This document shows, in pieces, positions 16,905-29,933 of a stretch of 64,000 nucleotides of DNA; position 1 is the first letter of the stretch; each line of letters opens with the position of its first letter. Under the pieces are notes generated by a model. It had not been told where the DNA came from, made no database searches, and saw nothing but the letters and a program-made list of their open reading frames with translations. Source of the stretch: Patescibacteria group bacterium (GTDB lineage: Bacteria > Patescibacteriota > Microgenomatia > UBA8517). Made by a program: the position numbers and the translations under genes. The DNA lies in contig DATDRP010000002.1 in NCBI GenBank assembly GCA_035291665.1, forward strand, positions 1,085 to 65,084. Reading direction: 5' to 3'.

Positions 16905-16949
16905 ATAACTCCATGCAACTGCACACCCTTAGGGTGATACATGCGTACA
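16905..16949 (+). repeat. REP-A element (CACCCTTAGGGTG hairpin plus ACACCCTTTACCC) 3' of the RAYT gene
   Basis: gcaactgcacacccttagggtgatacatgcgtacaccctttaccc. Near-identical copy at 19395-19440. Confidence 0.7.
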
Positions 16950-16963
16950 CCCTTTACCCAAAC

Positions 16964-17629
16964 TCAATCAATTAATAAATATTTAATATTTCCAAGTTTC
17001 CGTTGATAATCAACTTGATTAGCTACAAATTTTCGATACATTAATCTTGAGCCTATAATTTCAAGAATTAGTTTTGAATCTACAAGGGTCTCTTTTTTAC
17101 CGAGATAAATCGGAAATGAGGTTAAGACGCTGTCTTTTAATTCTTTTGTATCCATTAAGTATGATGTCACCGGATTCAAATGGATGTATCTGGATACATG
17201 AAGCAGGGTTTCATCACTGCTGATATGCTTAGCTTTAAACGGATTTTGAAATAGTGAACCATGTCTTTTGTTTTTAACATTAAAATATTTTGCATAGCTA
17301 TTTTGGAAATTCGATAAAAAATTGCGGATTCCATTTTCAGCTGTTTGTCTGAGAAGTAAATGAAAATGATCAGGCATAAAACAGTACGCGTAAATTTCTA
17401 CAATCTTTTTATCAAATGAATTATTTTTAAGATAGTCCAGTTTCTGAAAATCTTTTAATTTATTGAAAAAGGAGTACCTTATAGTTTGCTCATAATGGTA
17501 AAAGGAAATTAAATTTAGAGCTCTTTCTATGTCTCTTTTCTTCGAGAAAGTCCATTCATTGGCAGTTGTCCTATTGTAAACATGGTAGGTTTCACCATTT
17601 GCAAACACAAGGTTGCGTTTTCTCGGCAT
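16964..17629 (-). mobile_element. REP-associated tyrosine transposase (RAYT, IS200-like Y1 HuH transposase)
   Basis: YHVYNRT N-terminus, HuH motif MPDHFHLLL, catalytic Tyr motif SRYIHLNPV. Flanked on both sides by inverted REP-A copies. Confidence 0.75.
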
Positions 17630-17646
17630 AGAAGATTTATAATTTA

Positions 17647-17767
17647 TTTTACAGATTTGGGGGTAGGGTGTAAATACAATTTCACCCTTGGGGTGTAAGG
17701 ATTTATTATTTTACAGATTTGGGGGTAGGGTGTAAATACAATTTCACCCTTGGGGTGTAAGGATTTA
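17647..17767 (+). repeat. tandem duplication (2 x about 61 bp) of REP-A in inverse orientation, 5' of the RAYT gene
   Basis: ttttacagatttgggggtagggtgtaaatacaatttcacccttggggtgtaaggattta appears twice head-to-tail. Its reverse complement matches the 16905 copy. Confidence 0.75.
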
Positions 17768-19394: not shown

Positions 19395-19440
19395 GCACAC
19401 TTGCACACCCTTAGGGTGAAACATGCGTACACCCTTTACT
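19395..19440 (+). repeat. REP-A copy
   Basis: gcacacttgcacacccttagggtgaaacatgcgtacaccctttact. Confidence 0.7.
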
Positions 19441-19485
19441 CTCCGCATATAAACTTGATCATAACCTGAACGATTGAGGGTTTTC

Positions 19486-19528
19486 GGGGTAAAGGGTGTA
19501 AATATAATTTCACCCTTGGGGTGTAAAT
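19486..19528 (+). repeat. REP-A copy, inverse orientation variant
   Basis: ggggtaaagggtgtaaatataatttcacccttggggtgtaaatg. Pairs with the 19395 copy in a BIME-like arrangement. Confidence 0.65.
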
Positions 19529-22539: not shown

Positions 22540-22758
22540 TCATTTCCTCGTAAACATTCTTACTCTTGTTATTACTTTTCCGTCTTCATTGGGCCTCTCT
22601 GACAGCTGGACTTCAAATCCTAATCCGTCTTCGTTTTTCTCAACCAAATTCGAGGCTAATTTTGCCTCCTCATCACTGCCTCCTGCCGTCTTCACCCCGA
22701 TGAACGCCAGAATTTGAGAAGGCGAGTGGGTGTTTATATCAAGCATTTCGTCAGTCAT
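22540..22758 (-). CDS. hypothetical small protein (72 aa)
   Basis: One of three small overlapping co-directional ORFs between the TasA-like gene and the SipW fusion gene. Confidence 0.35.
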   Translation of the reverse strand: MTDEMLDINTHSPSQILAFIGVKTAGGSDEEAKLASNLVEKNEDGLGFEVQLSERPNEDGKVITRVRMFTRK

Positions 22759-22994
22759 GGTTCATTATTTTCGTGAAATACACTGAAACTGATCTTTTCA
22801 TTCGGTTTGTAAGTTTCGTTAACTACAATTCCAAAAGTTGTATCATTTTCGGGATCCAGTTCGTAAAGAAGTGCTGCCAGCGTTGCAGTTTTCTTATTTC
22901 CGCACAAAGACTCAACAAATGTATAAGCTAAACTTTGCGATTCATTCCAGCTTTTCCCTTCAGAAAAATCAGGATTTATTTTTTCGGCACACAT
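22755..22994 (-). CDS. hypothetical small protein (79 aa)
   Basis: 4-nt overlap with the downstream ORF, suggesting translational coupling. Confidence 0.35.
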   Translation of the reverse strand: MCAEKINPDFSEGKSWNESQSLAYTFVESLCGNKKTATLAALLYELDPENDTTFGIVVNETYKPNEKISFSVFHENNEP

Positions 22995-23191
22995 AATTTT
23001 CTTCTTGACGGGTTTACTTTACCGTCATTGACATTAACCGGCATAGATAGAATCCTTTTATATTCACTTTCAAGAGCCCGATAGGTTTCATATGTAATTG
23101 TTCCGGTAAGATACTGATCCGTTAGATCAATTAAACTCAAATCCTCTAATCGGACCTCTACCCCGTTATTCAAATGTTGCTCGATTATCAT
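22976..23191 (-). CDS. hypothetical small protein (71 aa)
   Basis: Overlaps the next ORF by 19 nt, co-directional. Confidence 0.35.
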   Translation of the reverse strand: MIIEQHLNNGVEVRLEDLSLIDLTDQYLTGTITYETYRALESEYKRILSMPVNVNDGKVNPSRRKLCVPKK

Positions 23192-23227: not shown

Positions 23228-23302
23228 AGACCACGTACTTCGACACTTTAAAGTACCTGGTCTGCCCTTCACCCTGAGTAATCTCATTGGGTGAAGAAAA
23301 CA
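23228..23302 (-). repeat. two consecutive stable hairpins 3' of the TasA-like gene
   Basis: ggcagaccacgtacttcgacactttaaagtacctggtctgcc (9+6 bp stem) and cttcaccctgagtaatctcattgggtgaag (8-bp stem with the CACCC/GGGTG core). Confidence 0.45.
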
Positions 23303-24667: not shown

Positions 24668-24684
24668 TTTTTATTTCACCTCCT

Positions 24685-24724
24685 CCCTGTGAAGTAGCGG
24701 TCTGCGCACTTCACGGGATCCCGT
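24685..24724. repeat. family C GC-rich hairpin (CCCTGTGAAGTAG...CACTTCACGGGATCCCGT) abutting the SD of the TasA-like gene
   Basis: 10-bp stem. Related copies at 24997, 25055, 26385, 26514 and 57503. Confidence 0.5.
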
Positions 24725-24856
24725 CCTGTTAGATAATTTCATATCTCATGGGACTGGGACCTCCATTCTAACTTCAGTTTACGGATGAAGCTCCGGATCT
24801 TTGAAAAATAAAAACTTAAAATTCAAAGCTCAAAACCATAATTTCAAACTTACTGA

Positions 24857-24914
24857 CACACCCTACGGGAGAAATCCTTATTAGATATTTCAAAGGTATT
24901 TCACCCCAAGGGTG
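24857..24914 (+). repeat. REP-B element (about 57 bp)
   Basis: cacaccctacgggagaaatccttattagatatttcaaaggtatttcaccccaagggtg. Confidence 0.7.
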
Positions 24915-24927
24915 TTTAAATTTTTAA

Positions 24928-24970
24928 TTTTATTCCGGGTTTCGGAGGGGCAAGCCTCCCGAAACCTTTG
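24928..24970. repeat. 11-bp-stem hairpin (ggtttcggagg...cctcccgaaacc)
   Basis: Inverted repeat read directly from the sequence. Sits in the 480-bp hairpin-dense spacer between the two TasA-like genes. Confidence 0.4.
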
Positions 24971-24996
24971 TCAAACTCTTTTTAAGGATTTTGCCA

Positions 24997-25032
24997 CCCC
25001 TGTGAGATAGTTTTTCACCACCTCACGGGGTG
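24997..25032. repeat. family C hairpin copy
   Basis: cccctgtgagatagtttttcaccacctcacggggtg. Confidence 0.45.
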
Positions 25033-25054
25033 ACTGAATTTTTCAAATTTTCTC

Positions 25055-25092
25055 CGACGAAGTAACGATTAACGTACTTCACGGAGTCCCGT
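25055..25092. repeat. family C hairpin copy
   Basis: cgacgaagtaacgattaacgtacttcacggagtcccgt. Confidence 0.45.
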
Positions 25093-25151
25093 AAGATATT
25101 AATTTATCTTACTGGGAGAAATTAGATTCCTTAACTAACTTCCTTGCGTGA

Positions 25152-26306
25152 CTAATTCGGTGCACAATCCAAATGAAAAGTGATACTGTTTCCCAAACTA
25201 TCTACCAAATCATGCACAACGTATCCTGTTTCACCAGCTGGGAATGTGTAATGTGGATAAACCGGATAGTTAAATCCATCCACTGCTAGAGCTCCTGGTT
25301 TAGCCATTCCATTACCTCCAACCAGATTAAGGCTTGAGTCGATTCCCCCACCGACAACATGTGTTCCGGCAGGACACGACCAACCAGCCCAACCTCCATC
25401 GCCAAATCCATCTTGAGTCCTACTTATTCTTGTAGGTTCAACAGGCCAAGTTGGTTTCCAATCAGAACAAAGGAAATTCGGATTGTTCCTGTGTTGGACC
25501 GCGTAGAATTGCAAATCACCGACAACTATGTCTGTTTGAGCTGCATTGTCTACTGGTTCGCCATCACAAGTGAATCCTGTTCCTCTTGCCAATGGACCGT
25601 TAGTTGCACCTTCAAGTTTTCCTTGTCCATCTTGAGCAACCGGATTTCTGGCTAAAGTTCCAAAACACCAGTATTTCCCGATGTGTACGGTTTCTCCACC
25701 TGGAAGAGGATTACCAGTACTCTGATCAGCCAATGCAATTTGACCCGAATCACCCATTCCACTCAGTGGTCCACTTAAGAACACACTTTCTGGACCGTTT
25801 TCCCCAATTTCGTAAACATTATCTCCATCATCCCACCAGAATACGAAATTCACTTCTTCGTCCAGTTCGCCATCTTCAAGTAATGGGTCTGCCCCGACTG
25901 TTAGATCGTCTCCAGTTTCAGGTTCAGTGTAAGTGTTGTCATTGTCATCTGTCAGCCTTGCAGCTGCACATACCCATGCATCATTATTATTTACATGAAC
26001 CGAAATTGTGTCTTCACCGTAATCTCCCGGTTTAAGATCAACAAAGTCAAAGAATTTTTGAACTGTTAAGTCCGCCAATTCCCATGATGTATTTTTACTT
26101 GCAACAAAAGCACCAATTGGTCTTTCGTATCCAGGAATGTTCCAATCGATTGCATAGCTTTCGTTATCGATCAAAAGGTCAATTGCACCTGCAACAAATG
26201 TATTTCCAGTTGATGTCTCTTCATCAGAGAAGAATGCACCGGTTGCGAGAACCGCACCTATTGCAACTACTCCGATAGAAAACGCACTTAATAAAATTTT
26301 TTTCAT
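25152..26306 (-). CDS. secreted TasA/camelysin-like protein with SipW-cognate signal peptide (paralog)
   Basis: MKKILLSAFSIGVVAIGAVLATGAFFSDEETSTGNTFVAGAIDL. Start taken at ATG 26304-26306 with SD AAAGGAGGTGA; the ORF track extends it to 26354. Confidence 0.65.
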   Translation of the reverse strand: MKKILLSAFSIGVVAIGAVLATGAFFSDEETSTGNTFVAGAIDLLIDNESYAIDWNIPGYERPIGAFVASKNTSWELADLTVQKFFDFVDLKPGDYGEDTISVHVNNNDAWVCAAARLTDDNDNTYTEPETGDDLTVGADPLLEDGELDEEVNFVFWWDDGDNVYEIGENGPESVFLSGPLSGMGDSGQIALADQSTGNPLPGGETVHIGKYWCFGTLARNPVAQDGQGKLEGATNGPLARGTGFTCDGEPVDNAAQTDIVVGDLQFYAVQHRNNPNFLCSDWKPTWPVEPTRISRTQDGFGDGGWAGWSCPAGTHVVGGGIDSSLNLVGGNGMAKPGALAVDGFNYPVYPHYTFPAGETGYVVHDLVDSLGNSITFHLDCAPN

Positions 26307-26317
26307 ATATTTCACCT

Positions 26318-26338
26318 CCTTTCTTCTTCGAAGAAAGG
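26318..26338 (-). promoter_or_regulatory. 5'UTR hairpin whose 3' arm overlaps the Shine-Dalgarno sequence of the TasA-like gene
   Basis: cctttcttcttcgaagaaagg gives a 9-bp perfect stem. On the mRNA its 3' arm continues directly into AGGAGGTGA. Confidence 0.45.
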
Positions 26339-26384
26339 AACCCGTTGGATGCATTTATGCTATCCAACTGGGTACCTCCTCCCC

Positions 26385-26420
26385 CTAAGAGATAGCTCCT
26401 GCGGAGCATCTCATGGGGTC
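26385..26420. repeat. family C hairpin copy
   Basis: cctaagagatagctcctgcggagcatctcatggggtc (GAGATaGCTCC / GGAGCaTCTC stem). Confidence 0.45.
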
Positions 26421-26513
26421 TTCGACCTAATTTTTAAATAAACAACCCATAATCATTTAGTAATATTCTTATTTAAATAATTTTTAATTCTGTTTTTGAT
26501 ATACCTCTTTCCC

Positions 26514-26556
26514 TTCCAGTGAAGTAGTCTTTCCGAGACACTTCACGGAATCACGT
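26514..26556. repeat. family C hairpin copy
   Basis: ttccagtgaagtagtctttccgagacacttcacggaatcacgt. Confidence 0.45.
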
Positions 26557-26575
26557 TAGATGTGCGAAGCACTAT

Positions 26576-26836
26576 CTAACTGTGACCACCAAAATAGTTT
26601 TTCAATCTACCTTTGATATACCGTTTTCCCCAAGCACTTTTTAGATAAACTTCCCTTTTATATGCATCTTTTAAATTTAATGATGCTTCGTAATAAACAA
26701 GTTTAAAAGGTCTCCTAAATTTCGTCGCTTTCACTAACCCTTTGTTGTGTCGTTCTAACCGTTTCTTTAAATCGTTTGATGTTCCTGTATATAACTTTTT
26801 ATCCTTCAAACTCTGTAATACATATACAAAATACAT
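26576..26836 (-). CDS. GIY-YIG nuclease domain protein (small, Slx1/YhbQ-like)
   Basis: MYFVYVLQSLKDKKLYTGTSNDLKKRLERHN is the GIY...YIG motif with the following Arg/His. Confidence 0.7.
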   Translation of the reverse strand: MYFVYVLQSLKDKKLYTGTSNDLKKRLERHNKGLVKATKFRRPFKLVYYEASLNLKDAYKREVYLKSAWGKRYIKGRLKNYFGGHS

Positions 26837-26875
26837 ACAGTAAAATGCATACCCTTTACCCCTTGCGCTTAACTC

Positions 26876-26932
26876 TCACCCTTCGGGAGAAATCCTTATT
26901 CTATATTTAAAGGTATTTCACTCCAAGGGTGG
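26876..26932 (+). repeat. REP-B element
   Basis: tcacccttcgggagaaatccttattctatatttaaaggtatttcactccaagggtgg, preceded by a REP-A fragment (accctttacccc). Confidence 0.7.
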
Positions 26933-27226
26933 TTATTTTATTAAACCCAGCTCACGTTTTCTTTGTTCTTCTTGTCTTTTATATTCTGCAATTTGCCGAT
27001 CCTGTTCTTGTGATAATTCATTGCGAACAATTTGCAATCTGGCAATAGCTAAATATTTATTTCCCTCGATTCCCGCTTCTCTTACTCTGGCAGATTCTTC
27101 CAAATTACCTTGCTCATTCAACAAGGCTTCATATTCTTTCAAAATAACGCTATCCTGTCTCCGGCATACTTCCGCAATTTTGTATATCATCGGATTATTT
27201 TCTCCTTCGAATTTAATTCCTACCAT
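26933..27226 (-). CDS. hypothetical small protein (97 aa), paralog of 27319-27588
   Basis: N-terminus MVGIKFEGENNPMIYKIAEV compared with MARIKNEGEKNPFEAKMEEV in the neighbour. Confidence 0.4.
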   Translation of the reverse strand: MVGIKFEGENNPMIYKIAEVCRRQDSVILKEYEALLNEQGNLEESARVREAGIEGNKYLAIARLQIVRNELSQEQDRQIAEYKRQEEQRKRELGLIK

Positions 27227-27245
27227 AGGATATGTTTTTTTATAC

Positions 27246-27302
27246 TCACCCTTCGGGAGAAATCCTTATTCTAAATTTCTTGGTATTTCACCCCAAGGGT
27301 GG
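27246..27302 (+). repeat. REP-B element
   Basis: tcacccttcgggagaaatccttattctaaatttcttggtatttcaccccaagggtgg. Confidence 0.7.
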
Positions 27303-27318
27303 TTATGTCAGCAGTAAT

Positions 27319-27588
27319 CTATTTTCGAAAACTCTTTTCAACTGTTATTCCCGGTTCTGCTGAATTCAATTCATCAAAAGCTATCCGGCTTTTTGCGATT
27401 GGCAAGGTCAAGGCAAGTTGAATCATAAGCTTCCCTATCAATGCCGCGTTAGTGAAATCTTTATTTTTTACTAATATACGTTTATATTCTGACAAAATCT
27501 CTTGAGCAGACCTCTGACTCACTTCTTCCATCTTTGCCTCAAATGGGTTCTTTTCTCCTTCATTTTTTATTCTTGCCATAACATTCAC
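27319..27588 (-). CDS. hypothetical small protein (89 aa), paralog of 26933-27226
   Basis: See the paralog. Flanked by REP-B on the 3' side and a REP-B half-site on the 5' side. Confidence 0.4.
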   Translation of the reverse strand: MNVMARIKNEGEKNPFEAKMEEVSQRSAQEILSEYKRILVKNKDFTNAALIGKLMIQLALTLPIAKSRIAFDELNSAEPGITVEKSFRK

Positions 27589-27595
27589 CTCTTTA

Positions 27596-27612
27596 TTTCA
27601 CCCCAAGGGTGG
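27596..27612 (+). repeat. REP-B half-site (tttcaccccaagggtgg)
   Basis: Matches the 3' arm of REP-B. Confidence 0.5.
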
Positions 27613-27633
27613 TTATTTGTACCGCTTCCAACT

Positions 27634-27661
27634 AAAAAACCCCAACGTTCGCTGGGGTTTT
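27634..27661. terminator. bidirectional rho-independent terminator-like hairpin
   Basis: aaaaaaccccaacgttcgctggggtttt: GC stem flanked by an A-run and a T-run. Confidence 0.5.
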
Positions 27662-27847
27662 AATGTTTGTATTAGGTTGAATTGGCCGCAGAAGGAATGT
27701 GGAGTATTGAGGCAGAAACTATCAGTCATAGTTATTCTTTATACAAAGCGTATATAGTTTTGTCAATAGGTCTTTCTATATAAATCTTATAGTTATCTTA
27801 ATGGGGATATATACTAATGATTCTTTCTGCCCTAAGTATCCCATAGG

Positions 27848-28432
27848 TTGTATTTGAAAACTAGCCAATGTAAAATACGCATCATGTCAAAAGAAAATAT
27901 TGAAAATGCATTCGATCAGCTTTTTAATGCTGATCCTAAAATTGCATACAATTATTTGGACAGGATTAACTTGGCAATTTTAAAAACCAGACATGCCCTT
28001 GATAACGGCTATCCCGGATGTGTCACGAGTACTGTTGCGTTTACACATCTTGGTGTAGCGGACAATTTTAACTACAATTCCACATTCCGTATAATCGATA
28101 TTGTAAATATGTCATTGGAAGTGTCCAAACTTTCTAAAGAAAAATTAAACCAAACATCCTTCCACGTATATGATCCTATATCTTCCGAAAAAATAAAATC
28201 AGCTCTGGGTAAATTTCATTCTGCATGGATAACCAATTCAAAAATAAAATCATCCGATTGCGGACATATGATTGGCTTAATACCGGGAAGGTTTTCGGGT
28301 GAGTTAATTATCTGGGATACAATGATGAAGTTTCTTTGTAACCAAACATACAACTATGAATCATTAATACTTGGAATCGAATCCGTAATAGACGAAAAGG
28401 ATAACTTCGGAACAATATTAACTTTCAAGTAG
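27848..28432 (+). CDS. hypothetical protein with conserved Cys...His...Asp signature, paralog of 28662-29267
   Basis: Shared blocks C(V/T)S(S/T)(V/I)AFTH, SAW(I/L), GH(M/L)IGL, (I/V)WDT(M/T)M(K/N)F. No known family recognised. Confidence 0.5.
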   Translation: MYLKTSQCKIRIMSKENIENAFDQLFNADPKIAYNYLDRINLAILKTRHALDNGYPGCVTSTVAFTHLGVADNFNYNSTFRIIDIVNMSLEVSKLSKEKLNQTSFHVYDPISSEKIKSALGKFHSAWITNSKIKSSDCGHMIGLIPGRFSGELIIWDTMMKFLCNQTYNYESLILGIESVIDEKDNFGTILTFK

Positions 28433-28435
28433 AAC

Positions 28436-28476
28436 TCCACACCCTAAGGGTGAAATTGTACTCACACCCTTTACCC
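28436..28476 (+). repeat. REP-A variant
   Basis: tccacaccctaagggtgaaattgtactcacaccctttacccc. Confidence 0.65.
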
Positions 28477-28490
28477 CGATCGTTAACATT

Positions 28491-28547
28491 CACCCTACGG
28501 GAGAAATCCTGATTCTATATTTAAAGGTATTTCACCCCAAGGGTGGT
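28491..28547 (+). repeat. REP-B element
   Basis: caccctacgggagaaatcctgattctatatttaaaggtatttcaccccaagggtgg. Confidence 0.7.
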
Positions 28548-28661
28548 TGGGGTGGTGTAGTTAAAACCATTTGTAAAAATTACCCCGACCAGAAATTATT
28601 TTTGATCGTAAATATGTTATAGGGTATAATACGTTTATTATAATAAAATCCAAACCCCCGG

Positions 28662-29267
28662 GTGGATTATAGCTATCATGAGTGGTATGATATTGCCTTA
28701 ATTATTAATATGGGAAAAGAATATCCCAAAGGATTTGATGAATTGAGAAAAACGCAAAATTATATTCTCGCTTTATCATTCTGCGACAGGCAACGTCAGG
28801 GTATCAAAGCAGCTGAAAAGTGTATTGACAATGAATTGGGTTCCATATGTGTTAGTTCATCAATTGCTTTCACCCACCCGAGAGAAAAAATTAATCAGCT
28901 TGATTATGTAAAAGTTTTGTATGGGCAAATATCCAGTATCGCTGCCTCAGTAGCTCTTAATCATATCCAAACATCAACACAGGTTCCATTTGATTCAAAA
29001 AATCCGCTCAAAACAAAGGTTTTTACTACTGCGCTCGATGAAGCCGTATCTGCTTGGATTTTATGGCATGGTCCAGAAGTTAAAGGGCACCTGATAGGTT
29101 TGGTTAAAGCAAGGACATCAGATGAATATTTTGTCTGGGATACTACAATGAATTTTAAATTTGAAAACCTGTATTCAACTTCTGATGTACTCAAAATTTT
29201 AGATTCTCAGCTGAAACGGAAGCAATATGAAGGAAAAGTCATTTCATTCAGAAATTTACCTACCTGA
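28662..29267 (+). CDS. hypothetical protein with conserved Cys...His...Asp signature (paralog)
   Basis: See 27848-28432. Confidence 0.5.
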   Translation: MDYSYHEWYDIALIINMGKEYPKGFDELRKTQNYILALSFCDRQRQGIKAAEKCIDNELGSICVSSSIAFTHPREKINQLDYVKVLYGQISSIAASVALNHIQTSTQVPFDSKNPLKTKVFTTALDEAVSAWILWHGPEVKGHLIGLVKARTSDEYFVWDTTMNFKFENLYSTSDVLKILDSQLKRKQYEGKVISFRNLPT

Positions 29268-29275
29268 AAAGAACT

Positions 29276-29316
29276 ACACACCCTAAGGGTGAAATTGTAT
29301 TCACACCCTTTACCCC
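29276..29316 (+). repeat. REP-A variant
   Basis: tacacaccctaagggtgaaattgtattcacaccctttacccc. Confidence 0.65.
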
Positions 29317-29328
29317 GTTCTTAAACAT

Positions 29329-29385
29329 TCACCCTTCGGGAGAAATCCTTATTCTAAATTTCTTGGTATTTCACCCCAAGGGTGG
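29329..29385 (+). repeat. REP-B element
   Basis: tcacccttcgggagaaatccttattctaaatttcttggtatttcaccccaagggtgg. Confidence 0.7.
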
Positions 29386-29393
29386 TTGAGTAT

Positions 29394-29789
29394 TCACCAG
29401 TTTCGTCCAGTGGAATTATTAATAGTGGGGCGGTAACCTCTAATTGGGACTTCATTTACAAAAAAAGATTTATTACCTTTATTCATTTCAAAATGAAAAT
29501 GTGCTGTATGACCCGCTCTTGGTTCCGTAGTAATTTGCCAATCACCATTTGAGTTAAAAATAACATTGCGATAAGTAACTCTGGCATCCACAGAATAATG
29601 CTTTTTACCCTCGTCGACTTCAACTGAACCGATAGGTTTGTACGCCCTAAGAAGCCCAGACGAAGCTTTTTTTGGAAACGGACATGGACCACATTCAAGT
29701 CCACGCTGACAAATATCATTTAAAAAAGGACACCAGAATTCTTTCGCCATATTAATGCAAATTATAACAATGAAAACCGGATAAATCAA
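29394..29789 (-). CDS. small M23 (LytM-type) metallopeptidase domain protein with Cys-rich N-terminus
   Basis: HYSVD (HxxxD) followed by GHTAHFHFE (HxH). N-terminal CPFLNDICQRGLECGPCPF. Confidence 0.55.
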   Translation of the reverse strand: MIYPVFIVIICINMAKEFWCPFLNDICQRGLECGPCPFPKKASSGLLRAYKPIGSVEVDEGKKHYSVDARVTYRNVIFNSNGDWQITTEPRAGHTAHFHFEMNKGNKSFFVNEVPIRGYRPTINNSTGRNW

Positions 29790-29814
29790 TATTATAGGCT
29801 GTATTACAACATAA

Positions 29815-29872
29815 TCACCCTTCGGGAGAAATCCTTATTCTATTTTTCTTGGTATTTCACCCCAAGGGTGGT
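29815..29872 (+). repeat. REP-B element
   Basis: tcacccttcgggagaaatccttattctatttttcttggtatttcaccccaagggtggt. Confidence 0.7.
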
Positions 29873-29933
29873 CCTACAGGTAGACAGCGCAGCAAAAAGT
29901 TGACTTACCACAAGCTAGTCGTAAAATATCTTC

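Follow-up and report, generated by a model that had tools for sequence, protein, structure and literature searches.

We analysed a stretch of 64,000 nucleotides (the window) from an uncultured Patescibacteria group bacterium (Patescibacteriota; Microgenomatia; UBA8517; assembly GCA_035291665.1, contig DATDRP010000002.1, positions 1,085 to 65,084 of the forward strand), in which a 57-base hairpin repeat, REP-B, alternates with small genes over about 5 kb. With a probability of roughly 60%, we consider this locus to be a cluster of REPINs (hairpin-forming doublets of repetitive extragenic palindromic, REP, sequences) linked to a RAYT (REP-associated tyrosine transposase), which acts as a local hotspot for duplication and excision. 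The repeats are packed into a single array, share their basic unit with the flanks of a RAYT-like gene, are far younger in appearance than the paralogous genes they separate, and form recombinant junctions with one another in a natural population.

REP-B hairpins and the RAYT-like gene

Six full copies and one half copy of REP-B lie within the 5-kb stretch, all on the plus strand. The original prediction, made from the letters of the DNA alone, had described seven co-oriented repeats, and both pattern searches with the two arms and a covariance model based on all six full copies recovered them. They are given here together with the units of the related repeat REP-A inside the array; open reading frames (ORFs) are named by their length in amino acids (aa).

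24858..24915, plus strand: REP-B copy 1, the most divergent copy (83–90% identity to the others), between two TasA/camelysin-like paralogs
26876..26932, plus strand: REP-B copy 2, loop TATATTTAAAGG; adjacent to the stop codon of the 97-aa ORF, with a REP-A tail remnant ahead of it (26848–26862)
27246..27302, plus strand: REP-B copy 3, loop TAAATTTCTTGG; partner in the 2083-bp recombinant junction
27592..27612, plus strand: REP singlet, the REP-B right arm alone, with the 3' flank TTAT as in copies 2 and 3 (covariance-model E 0.58)
28439..28477, plus strand: REP-A unit ACACCCTAAGGGTGAAATTGTACTCACACCCTTTACCCC, immediately 3' of the stop of the 194-aa gene; with copy 4 it makes a 119-nt composite
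28490..28546, plus strand: REP-B copy 4, found by both arms and the covariance model
29278..29316, plus strand: REP-A unit, immediately 3' of the stop of the 201-aa gene; part of a second composite
29329..29385, plus strand: REP-B copy 5, recombined with copy 3 at one junction and with copy 6 at the other
29815..29871, plus strand: REP-B copy 6, loop TATTTTTC; located between the 131-aa and 116-aa genes, in their divergent promoter region

The right arm, GGTATTTCACCCCAAGGGTGG, occurred with up to three mismatches at 24895, 26912, 27282, 27592, 28526, 29365, and 29851, and the left arm at 26876, 27246, 28490, 29329, 29815, and, with one mismatch, at 24859. All these sites are on the plus strand, and the number expected by chance was 0.00 for either pattern. 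The copies are 83–100% identical to one another, and copies 3 and 5 agree exactly over 59 bp (27246–27304 and 29329–29387). The covariance model found no additional copy elsewhere in the window (64 kb) or in flanking sequence of about 20 kb, so that seven copies per 5 kb compare with none in about 79 kb of other sequence. The REP singlet is located 12 nt upstream of the ATG at 27579, the start used for the 89-aa gene by the gene calls of the Joint Genome Institute (JGI) and the European Nucleotide Archive (ENA).

All copies are extragenic. Of the eight intergenic spaces in a row from 24668 to 29933, seven contain a copy and one, 26355–26575, does not; the other ~60 intergenic spaces of the window contain none. 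The alternation with single small ORFs that had been noticed before holds for five of the six inter-repeat intervals, each containing exactly one ORF; the first interval departs from it with two genes, one TasA-like and one coding for a GIY-YIG protein. The probability that seven of seven copies fall on one strand by chance is about 0.016. Since the GC skew is negative along the whole plus strand (GC content of the window, 38.6%), all REP-B copies lie on the same replication strand.

Each REP-B had been thought to form two CACCC/GGGTG hairpins. The folding check revised this picture: the minimum-free-energy fold is one long bulged hairpin, calculated as RNA or as DNA and for either strand. It is composed of eight pairs (including G-T), a bulge, three pairs, a bulge, five pairs, a bulge, two pairs, and a 16-nt loop, with fold energies of -24 to -26 kcal/mol for RNA and -11 to -14 for DNA and z-scores of -3 to -4.7 relative to shuffled controls. 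The loop of ~16 nt is the only variable part of REP-B. Its arms are inverted copies of one unit of ~20 nt, CACCCTT(C/G)GGG(A/T)GAAAT(A)CC, that is, CACCCTTSGGGWGAAAT(A)CC. This unit is seen in the left arm CACCCTTCGGGAGAAAT, in the reverse complement of the right arm CACCCTTGGGGTGAAAT, and in the head of REP-A ACACCCTAAGGGTGAAAT. REP-A has the form ACACCC-N3-GGGTGAAA...ACACCCTTTACCCC, with the head corresponding to the REP-B arm unit (CACCC-N3-GGGTG-AAAT). A REP-A unit indeed precedes REP-B at 28439 and 29278, as had been described, in an arrangement resembling bacterial interspersed mosaic elements (BIMEs), and the two 119-nt composites are 91% identical to each other.

REPINs have been defined as two inverted REPs that form a hairpin, the same REP being present beside a RAYT gene (PMC3116915). 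In REP-B, two inverted REP units with a short spacer form one hairpin, and the unit is the REP unit beside the RAYT-like gene described below, though the flanks of that gene are REP-A. Therefore, REP-B fits the published definition and, judging from these sequence features, is a compact REPIN-type element, an inverted REP doublet around a variable spacer of ~16 nt. Rfam gave zero matches in the whole window at gathering thresholds and zero relevant matches in the region at E ≤ 5, and no tRNA genes were found in the window.

The RAYT-like gene is located 7 kb from the array and has REP-A on both sides.

16923..16960, plus strand: REP-A, a single copy flanking one side of the RAYT-like gene
16964..17629, minus strand: RAYT-like HUH/Y1 transposase ORF, 221 aa, with the HUH motif in MPDHFHLLL and the catalytic Tyr in SRYIH
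17644..17767, minus strand: REP-A, two tandem 62-nt copies flanking the other side of the gene in inverted orientation
19402..19527, no strand assigned: wide inverted pair (doublet) of REP-A, picked up by the REP-B covariance model (E 0.001)

The ORF matches Y1_Tnp in Pfam (PF01797, E 7e-10) and REP_Tyr_transpos in NCBIfam (NF047646, 51 bits, E 1e-13, below the model cut-off of 80), and its alignment with the ISDra2 TnpA structure covers HFH (HUH) and RYI (Tyr). According to these matches, it is a distant relative of the curated RAYT family. More than 1271 homologous proteins were found at E ≤ 1e-10; among the matches listed, which are ~221 aa long, the named ones all belong to Patescibacteria. 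Orthologs with 62–64% identity at two loci of other Patescibacteria (L034 and L036) have inverted CACCCGTCGGGTG...GACAC flanks in unrelated genomic contexts, and REP-B was absent by the covariance model from the loci retrieved around RAYT orthologs. The equivalence of the REP-B arm unit with the REP-A head, together with the inverted REP-A around the HUH/Y1 ORF, upholds the earlier assignment of the repeats to RAYT-linked REP families.

REP-B could instead be an element selected by the host, such as a terminator, a stabiliser of mRNA 3' ends, a protein-binding site, or a transcription insulator, its identity being kept by selection and recombination being incidental. Such a role would agree with four copies located 0–60 nt past stop codons, with the terminator-like appearance of three copies on the plus strand (a GC stem followed by TTATTT), with the stability of the hairpin on both strands, and with predicted promoters belonging to several individual genes. 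However, REP-B is oriented according to the chromosome strand, whichever way the genes run; a position upstream of a gene, or between two divergent ones, is found for copies 1 and 6 and for the singlet; the four minus-strand genes gain no T-tract from the reverse complement; ~60 other intergenic regions in the window do without REP-B; and Rfam has no match for it. We regard this explanation as unlikely.

Recombinant junctions between REP-B copies

Contigs from metagenomes of Rifle aquifer groundwater, one of them a JGI contig of 516 kb, match the window with 100% identity, and the sources label its proteins as 'Patescibacteria group bacterium'. Exchanges between REP-B copies are seen in four contigs from independent Rifle assemblies (L052, L043, L020, and L053), which lends support to the earlier suggestion of a REP-driven hotspot for gene duplication and shuffling. 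Two units could be delimited from the junctions.

27246..29328, no strand assigned: 2083-bp unit of copy 3, the 89-aa, 194-aa, and 201-aa genes, and REP-A; end-to-start junction in L020 and L043
29329..29814, no strand assigned: 486-bp unit of REP-B copy 5 and the 131-aa gene with its promoter; closed cycle in L052

Contig L052, assembled with MEGAHIT, is 627 bp long and has a 141-nt terminal direct repeat, an overlap equal to k, and thus closes into an exact 486-bp cycle of 29329–29814 without any mismatches. At its junction, the 5' flank comes from copy 6 (29815), whereas loop and 3' flank come from copy 5 (29329); therefore, the crossover took place inside the 28-nt left arm, 29329–29356. 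The junction 29387|27305, running through a single REP-B, was present in L043 (MEGAHIT, k = 141) and in L020 (the ANAN16 assembly, from a different sample), and it is that of a duplicated or circularised 2083-bp unit of three genes. In L053, copy 5 (29329) carries the loop of copy 6 (29815), and the sole visible boundary of the exchanged tract is in the right arm. Because the exchange points lie in different arms, the left in L052 and the right in L053, homologous recombination, gene conversion, or template switching is favoured over one fixed cut site. A further contig, L047, differs from the window merely by a scaffold gap of Ns.

The junction contigs might be artefacts of assembly or library preparation, in which case REP-B would be a static relic without current activity. 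In favour of this explanation, the junction contigs are short (504–1413 bp) and all long contigs follow the reference order. Against it, the same 29387|27305 junction was recovered in two assemblies of different samples, and the overlap in L052 is exactly k, with a cycle that matches the window without mismatch. Moreover, MEGAHIT paths at k = 141 through a 59-bp repeat need reads that span the whole repeat. Artefacts seem to us a rather improbable source of these junctions.

Several observations still weigh against a RAYT-linked REPIN cluster that acts as a recombination hotspot. Every long contig, representing the dominant strain, matches the window over the whole array with 100% identity and in the same order; the exchanges were seen in the four short recombinant contigs. 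Contigs of such short length do not distinguish circles from tandem duplications or from rare chimeras. None of the contigs compared lacks or has gained a REP-B, so that the element is at most putatively mobile. The RAYT gene is flanked by REP-A and not by REP-B, and one cluster was seen in ~84 kb, whereas a REPIN usually has tens to hundreds of dispersed copies. The two substitutions in the stem, producing a mismatch and a G-T wobble, are uncompensated, and the copies are too similar for covariation; nothing in the aligned copies shows selection on the long hairpin, the stem substitutions being uncompensated.

The closed cycle could also point to gene cassettes mobilised by the RAYT (HUH/Y1) enzyme, with REP-B copies as the recombination sites. 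In such a system, single-stranded DNA would be cut at the same position of two co-oriented REP-B hairpins and a gene would be released as a circle with one REP-B and reinserted at another REP-B. If this were true, an integron-like function, with excision as circles and shuffling of single genes, would have been built on a different enzyme. The cycle of exactly one gene and one REP-B fits this idea, as do the junction compatible with a cut at the 5' boundary of REP-B, the layout of one ORF per interval with all sites in one orientation on one replication strand, the RAYT gene 7 kb off, and the circular single-stranded DNA intermediates used by Y1 enzymes (PMC6006769). On the other hand, homologous exchange fits better with a boundary in the right arm of L053 and a crossover in the left arm of L052. 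Circles excised by IS200/IS605-type elements retain both end hairpins and not one, unlike the cycle found here with its single hairpin. In addition, homologs of the 194-aa and 201-aa proteins are present in other organisms without such repeats, and no cassette was seen at a new location. Such a cassette system is, in our judgement, also unlikely.

The resemblance to integrons leads to another explanation, a degenerate integron cassette array (CALIN, a cluster of attC sites lacking an integrase), in which REP-B would represent attC sites for an integrase encoded elsewhere. Sites of attC are marked by conserved AAC/GTT triplets, their cassettes rarely have promoters, and very small genomes are without integrons (PMC4889954). 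Besides the R box, an attC site has unpaired spacers, an L box, and a variable terminal structure of 20–100 nt. In favour of such an array, the sites are homogeneous bulged hairpins of 57 nt, all in one orientation and separated by single ORFs; the stem has GTT after it in five of seven copies and AAC 2–5 nt before it in four of six; and the closed cycle comprises one gene and one site. However, no tyrosine recombinase (PF00589-type) was found by Pfam, including precomputed lists, in the window ORFs scanned or in ~20 kb flanks, in line with the earlier remark that no integrase is present. A pairable AAC/GTT R box exists in just three of six copies, all of them REP-A composites, there is no 3'-side spacer, and the loop has 16 nt. 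In L052, the crossover fell in the left arm instead of at G|TT. The sites are opposed in direction by four of the six ORFs, promoters are predicted for several genes, and the arms are a RAYT-type REP unit. We consider this explanation very improbable. The array is not an integron, because no integrase was found in the window or its ~20 kb of flanks, its attC core triplets are inconsistent, and several of its genes come with predicted promoters; as the original prediction had judged, the likeness is one of layout only.

Genes between the repeats and their surroundings

Six small ORFs lie between REP-B copies, apart from the TasA-like gene.

26576..26836, minus strand: GIY-YIG nuclease-domain ORF, 86 aa (PF01541, E 3e-15)
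26933..27226, minus strand: 97-aa ORF, paralog of the 89-aa ORF; no known family
27319..27588, minus strand: 89-aa ORF, paralog of the 97-aa ORF; 86 aa from ATG 27579 in the gene calls
27848..28432, plus strand: 194-aa ORF, 182 aa from 27884 in the gene calls; small Cys/His family with a probable papain-like fold
28662..29267, plus strand: 201-aa ORF, paralog of the 194-aa ORF; predicted promoter at 28602–28630
29394..29789, minus strand: 131-aa ORF, 118 aa from 29750 in the gene calls; family unassigned, near-consensus promoter at 29789–29761

The GIY-YIG protein and the two paralog pairs had been correctly recognised. The 97-aa and 89-aa proteins are 34% identical (E 2e-9), and the 194-aa and 201-aa proteins are 27% identical (E 5e-17). 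In the comparison by codon position, the paralog pairs have 29–35% protein identity, and their third-codon identity of 0.31–0.35 equals saturation, from which the paralog pairs appear to be old, far older than the repeats. As saturated paralogs contrast with REP-B copies that are 83–100% identical, the repeats did not simply drift along with the duplicated genes. REP-B arrived later than the paralogs, or is being homogenised, or is strongly constrained.

The 131-aa ORF had been read as a mini M23 peptidase, an annotation that we could not retain. Neither it nor the 118-aa call has a match in Pfam, NCBIfam, or PHROGs (E ≤ 0.1) or among PDB sequences (E ≤ 10); BLASTP against the genuine M23 protein of the window gave E 0.46; and the AlphaFold2 model, with a pLDDT (predicted local distance difference test) of 42, is unusable. 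An HxxxD...HxH motif is visible by eye, and nothing further points toward M23.

The family of the 194-aa and 201-aa proteins is rare, with 15 representatives among 1.84 billion proteins, and it has invariant Cys46 and His128; the two paralogs are located at 27884–28432 and 28710–29267. Its AlphaFold2 model is confident (pLDDT 87), and Foldseek matches to it are weak (E ≥ 2e-3), many of the better ones being papain-like cysteine protease toxins or effectors. On the strength of this predicted fold, the two paralogs may be toxin- or effector-like proteins. Loci of their homologs in other organisms (L028 and L029) have no REP-B-like repeats; therefore, the genes and the repeats are not a unit travelling across organisms. 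In another Rifle sample, contig L021 shares 1374 bp with the window, and the two differ there only by 18 substitutions, which fall within 28196–28291 of the 194-aa gene and next to the end of the contig. This cluster of single-nucleotide polymorphisms looks like a divergent allele or a recombination tract; an origin from a diversity-generating retroelement was rejected, as the substitutions are not A-specific.

Several genes of this small-gene island have promoter-like sites of their own, the one of the 131-aa gene matching the consensus at 10 of 12 positions. The sites at 29761–29789 and 29900–29927 (10/12 to consensus) end 6–10 nt before the predicted starts of the 131-aa gene (118-aa call) and the 116-aa gene, respectively, which suggests that the predicted mRNAs of these genes are leaderless or have very short leaders.

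The array adjoins a cluster of genes for a sortase, an fn3 protein, a HemolysinCabind protein, a SipW-LTD protein, and two TasA/camelysin-like proteins. The closest relatives of the SipW-LTD protein are at most 57% identical, and the closest named ones are from Woesebacteria. Since locus L038, with a SipW protein of 48% identity, keeps the TasA-SipW-HemolysinCabind-sortase cluster without the array, the small-gene island is lineage-specific. Three overlapping small ORFs (72, 79, and 71 aa) without family matches are located at 22540–23191 of the window, between the SipW-LTD and TasA-like genes; unlike the window, L038 has no small ORFs between the corresponding genes.

A second, unrelated repeat family with a two-hairpin motif of ~75 nt was observed on the minus strand at 24680–24765, 25045–25125, and 26513–26590. 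The motif reads GTTAGAT..ATCTAAC, then ACGGGAYYCC, then GTGAAGT-N10-12-ACTTCAC, and has no Rfam match. The ribosome-binding site of one TasA-like gene has a copy immediately upstream, another copy lies just downstream of the other TasA-like gene, and the third overlaps the 3' end of the GIY-YIG ORF. Beside the TasA-like genes, at 23270–23298 and 24995–25032, there are also intergenic hairpins with a CACCC/GGGTG core and longer loops (CTTCACCC-N14-GGGTGAAG; CCACCCC...GGGGTG), which may be older or variant forms of REP. About 9 kb past the right end of the window, two contigs differ in gene content: one of L030 (1–2400) and L031 (1–2200) has genes for a helix-turn-helix regulator and a Terminase_2-like protein, the other HAD/NUDIX and RNase_T genes. 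This strain difference may be a mobile-element insertion.

A possible mechanism and comparison with known systems

For REPINs, clusters beside RAYT genes have been described, as have strand-specific arrays (PMC3116915), and Y1 enzymes act on lagging-strand single-stranded DNA with circular single-stranded intermediates (PMC6006769). In the mechanism that we propose, the RAYT would copy, spread, or homogenise REP units, including REP-B, through the single-stranded DNA of one replication strand, and this would account for the uniform orientation of the REP-B copies. Being co-oriented and nearly identical (up to 59 bp exact), the hairpins could then serve as direct repeats for recombination. REP sequences are recombination hot spots (PMC11708052), and REP copies were described as join points of duplications by Shyamala et al. 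1990, as cited in PMC11708052. An exchange between two copies would either duplicate the intervening gene or genes in tandem or loop them out as a circle with one REP-B. Such exchanges would probably occur mostly by homologous recombination or template switching and not in a site-specific manner. Repeated rounds would leave adjacent paralogs with REP-B between them, such as TasA1|TasA2, 97|89, and 194|201, and past events of this kind might have given rise to the adjacent pairs seen today.

Work on REPIN-RAYT systems has dealt almost exclusively with Proteobacteria, where the repeats were studied as dispersed elements free of genes. New here are the building blocks of such a system in a Patescibacteria bacterium with an ultrasmall genome, the packing of the repeats between single small genes, and evidence from a natural population that the repeats recombine and thereby duplicate or loop out genes. 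A full-text literature search for RAYT or REPIN together with Patescibacteria or Candidate Phyla Radiation terms gave no paper among the matches listed. An 18-mer scan of genome contigs gave 17 matches, about the chance level for such a collection by our own estimate, and a related single hairpin was seen only in two Microgenomates contigs (L001 and L005). Scans of metagenome contigs gave zero matches, although a JGI contig does hold the array, and two scans of viral contigs also gave zero. The locus offers a concrete and testable route by which streamlined genomes might make paralogs and diversify an island whose genes evolve rapidly; two of these genes look like papain-fold Cys/His proteins. 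It is also suited to asking whether RAYT enzymes move genes, not only repeats.

Compared with an integron or a CALIN, the locus has similarly uniform bulged hairpin sites in one orientation, with a single ORF between one site and the next, and it yielded a product of one gene and one site; it differs in the absence of any integrase from the window and its flanks, in the lack of a consistent R box, in the mixed orientation of the ORFs, and in several predicted promoters. With the peel-and-paste transposition of IS200/IS605 elements it shares the HUH/Y1 enzyme class, the recognition of single-stranded DNA hairpins on one strand, the replication-strand bias, and circular intermediates. Unlike in IS200/IS605, the units bounded by REP-B are without a transposase gene, the flanks of the RAYT gene are inverted and are not end hairpins of the same orientation, the cycle has one hairpin instead of two, and no new insertion sites were seen. 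The 119-nt composites are REP mosaics of alternating orientation at gene 3' ends, as are the BIMEs of Escherichia coli, whereas their sequences are unrelated and the composites occur here only twice. In the REP-mediated tandem duplication of Shyamala et al. 1990, as far as it is represented in PMC11708052, REP is the join point, as it is in our junction contigs; here, by comparison, the units are single small genes, 0.5–2 kb in size, one closed cycle was recovered, and the evidence is metagenomic and not genetic.

The closest counterpart is the REPIN/RAYT system (Bertels and Rainey 2011, PMC3116915). REP-B is very compact relative to those elements, with 57 nt instead of roughly 70–110 nt; it was seen only in one local cluster with whole genes between the copies, in contrast to dispersed or gene-free tandem arrays; and its host is a Patescibacteria bacterium with a small genome, in which the RAYT gene is flanked by the REP-A variant. 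Despite these differences, both systems have an extragenic, inverted REP doublet that forms one hairpin, and the same REP unit inverted around an HUH/Y1 RAYT-like gene, and clusters as well as strand-specific arrays occur among REPINs.

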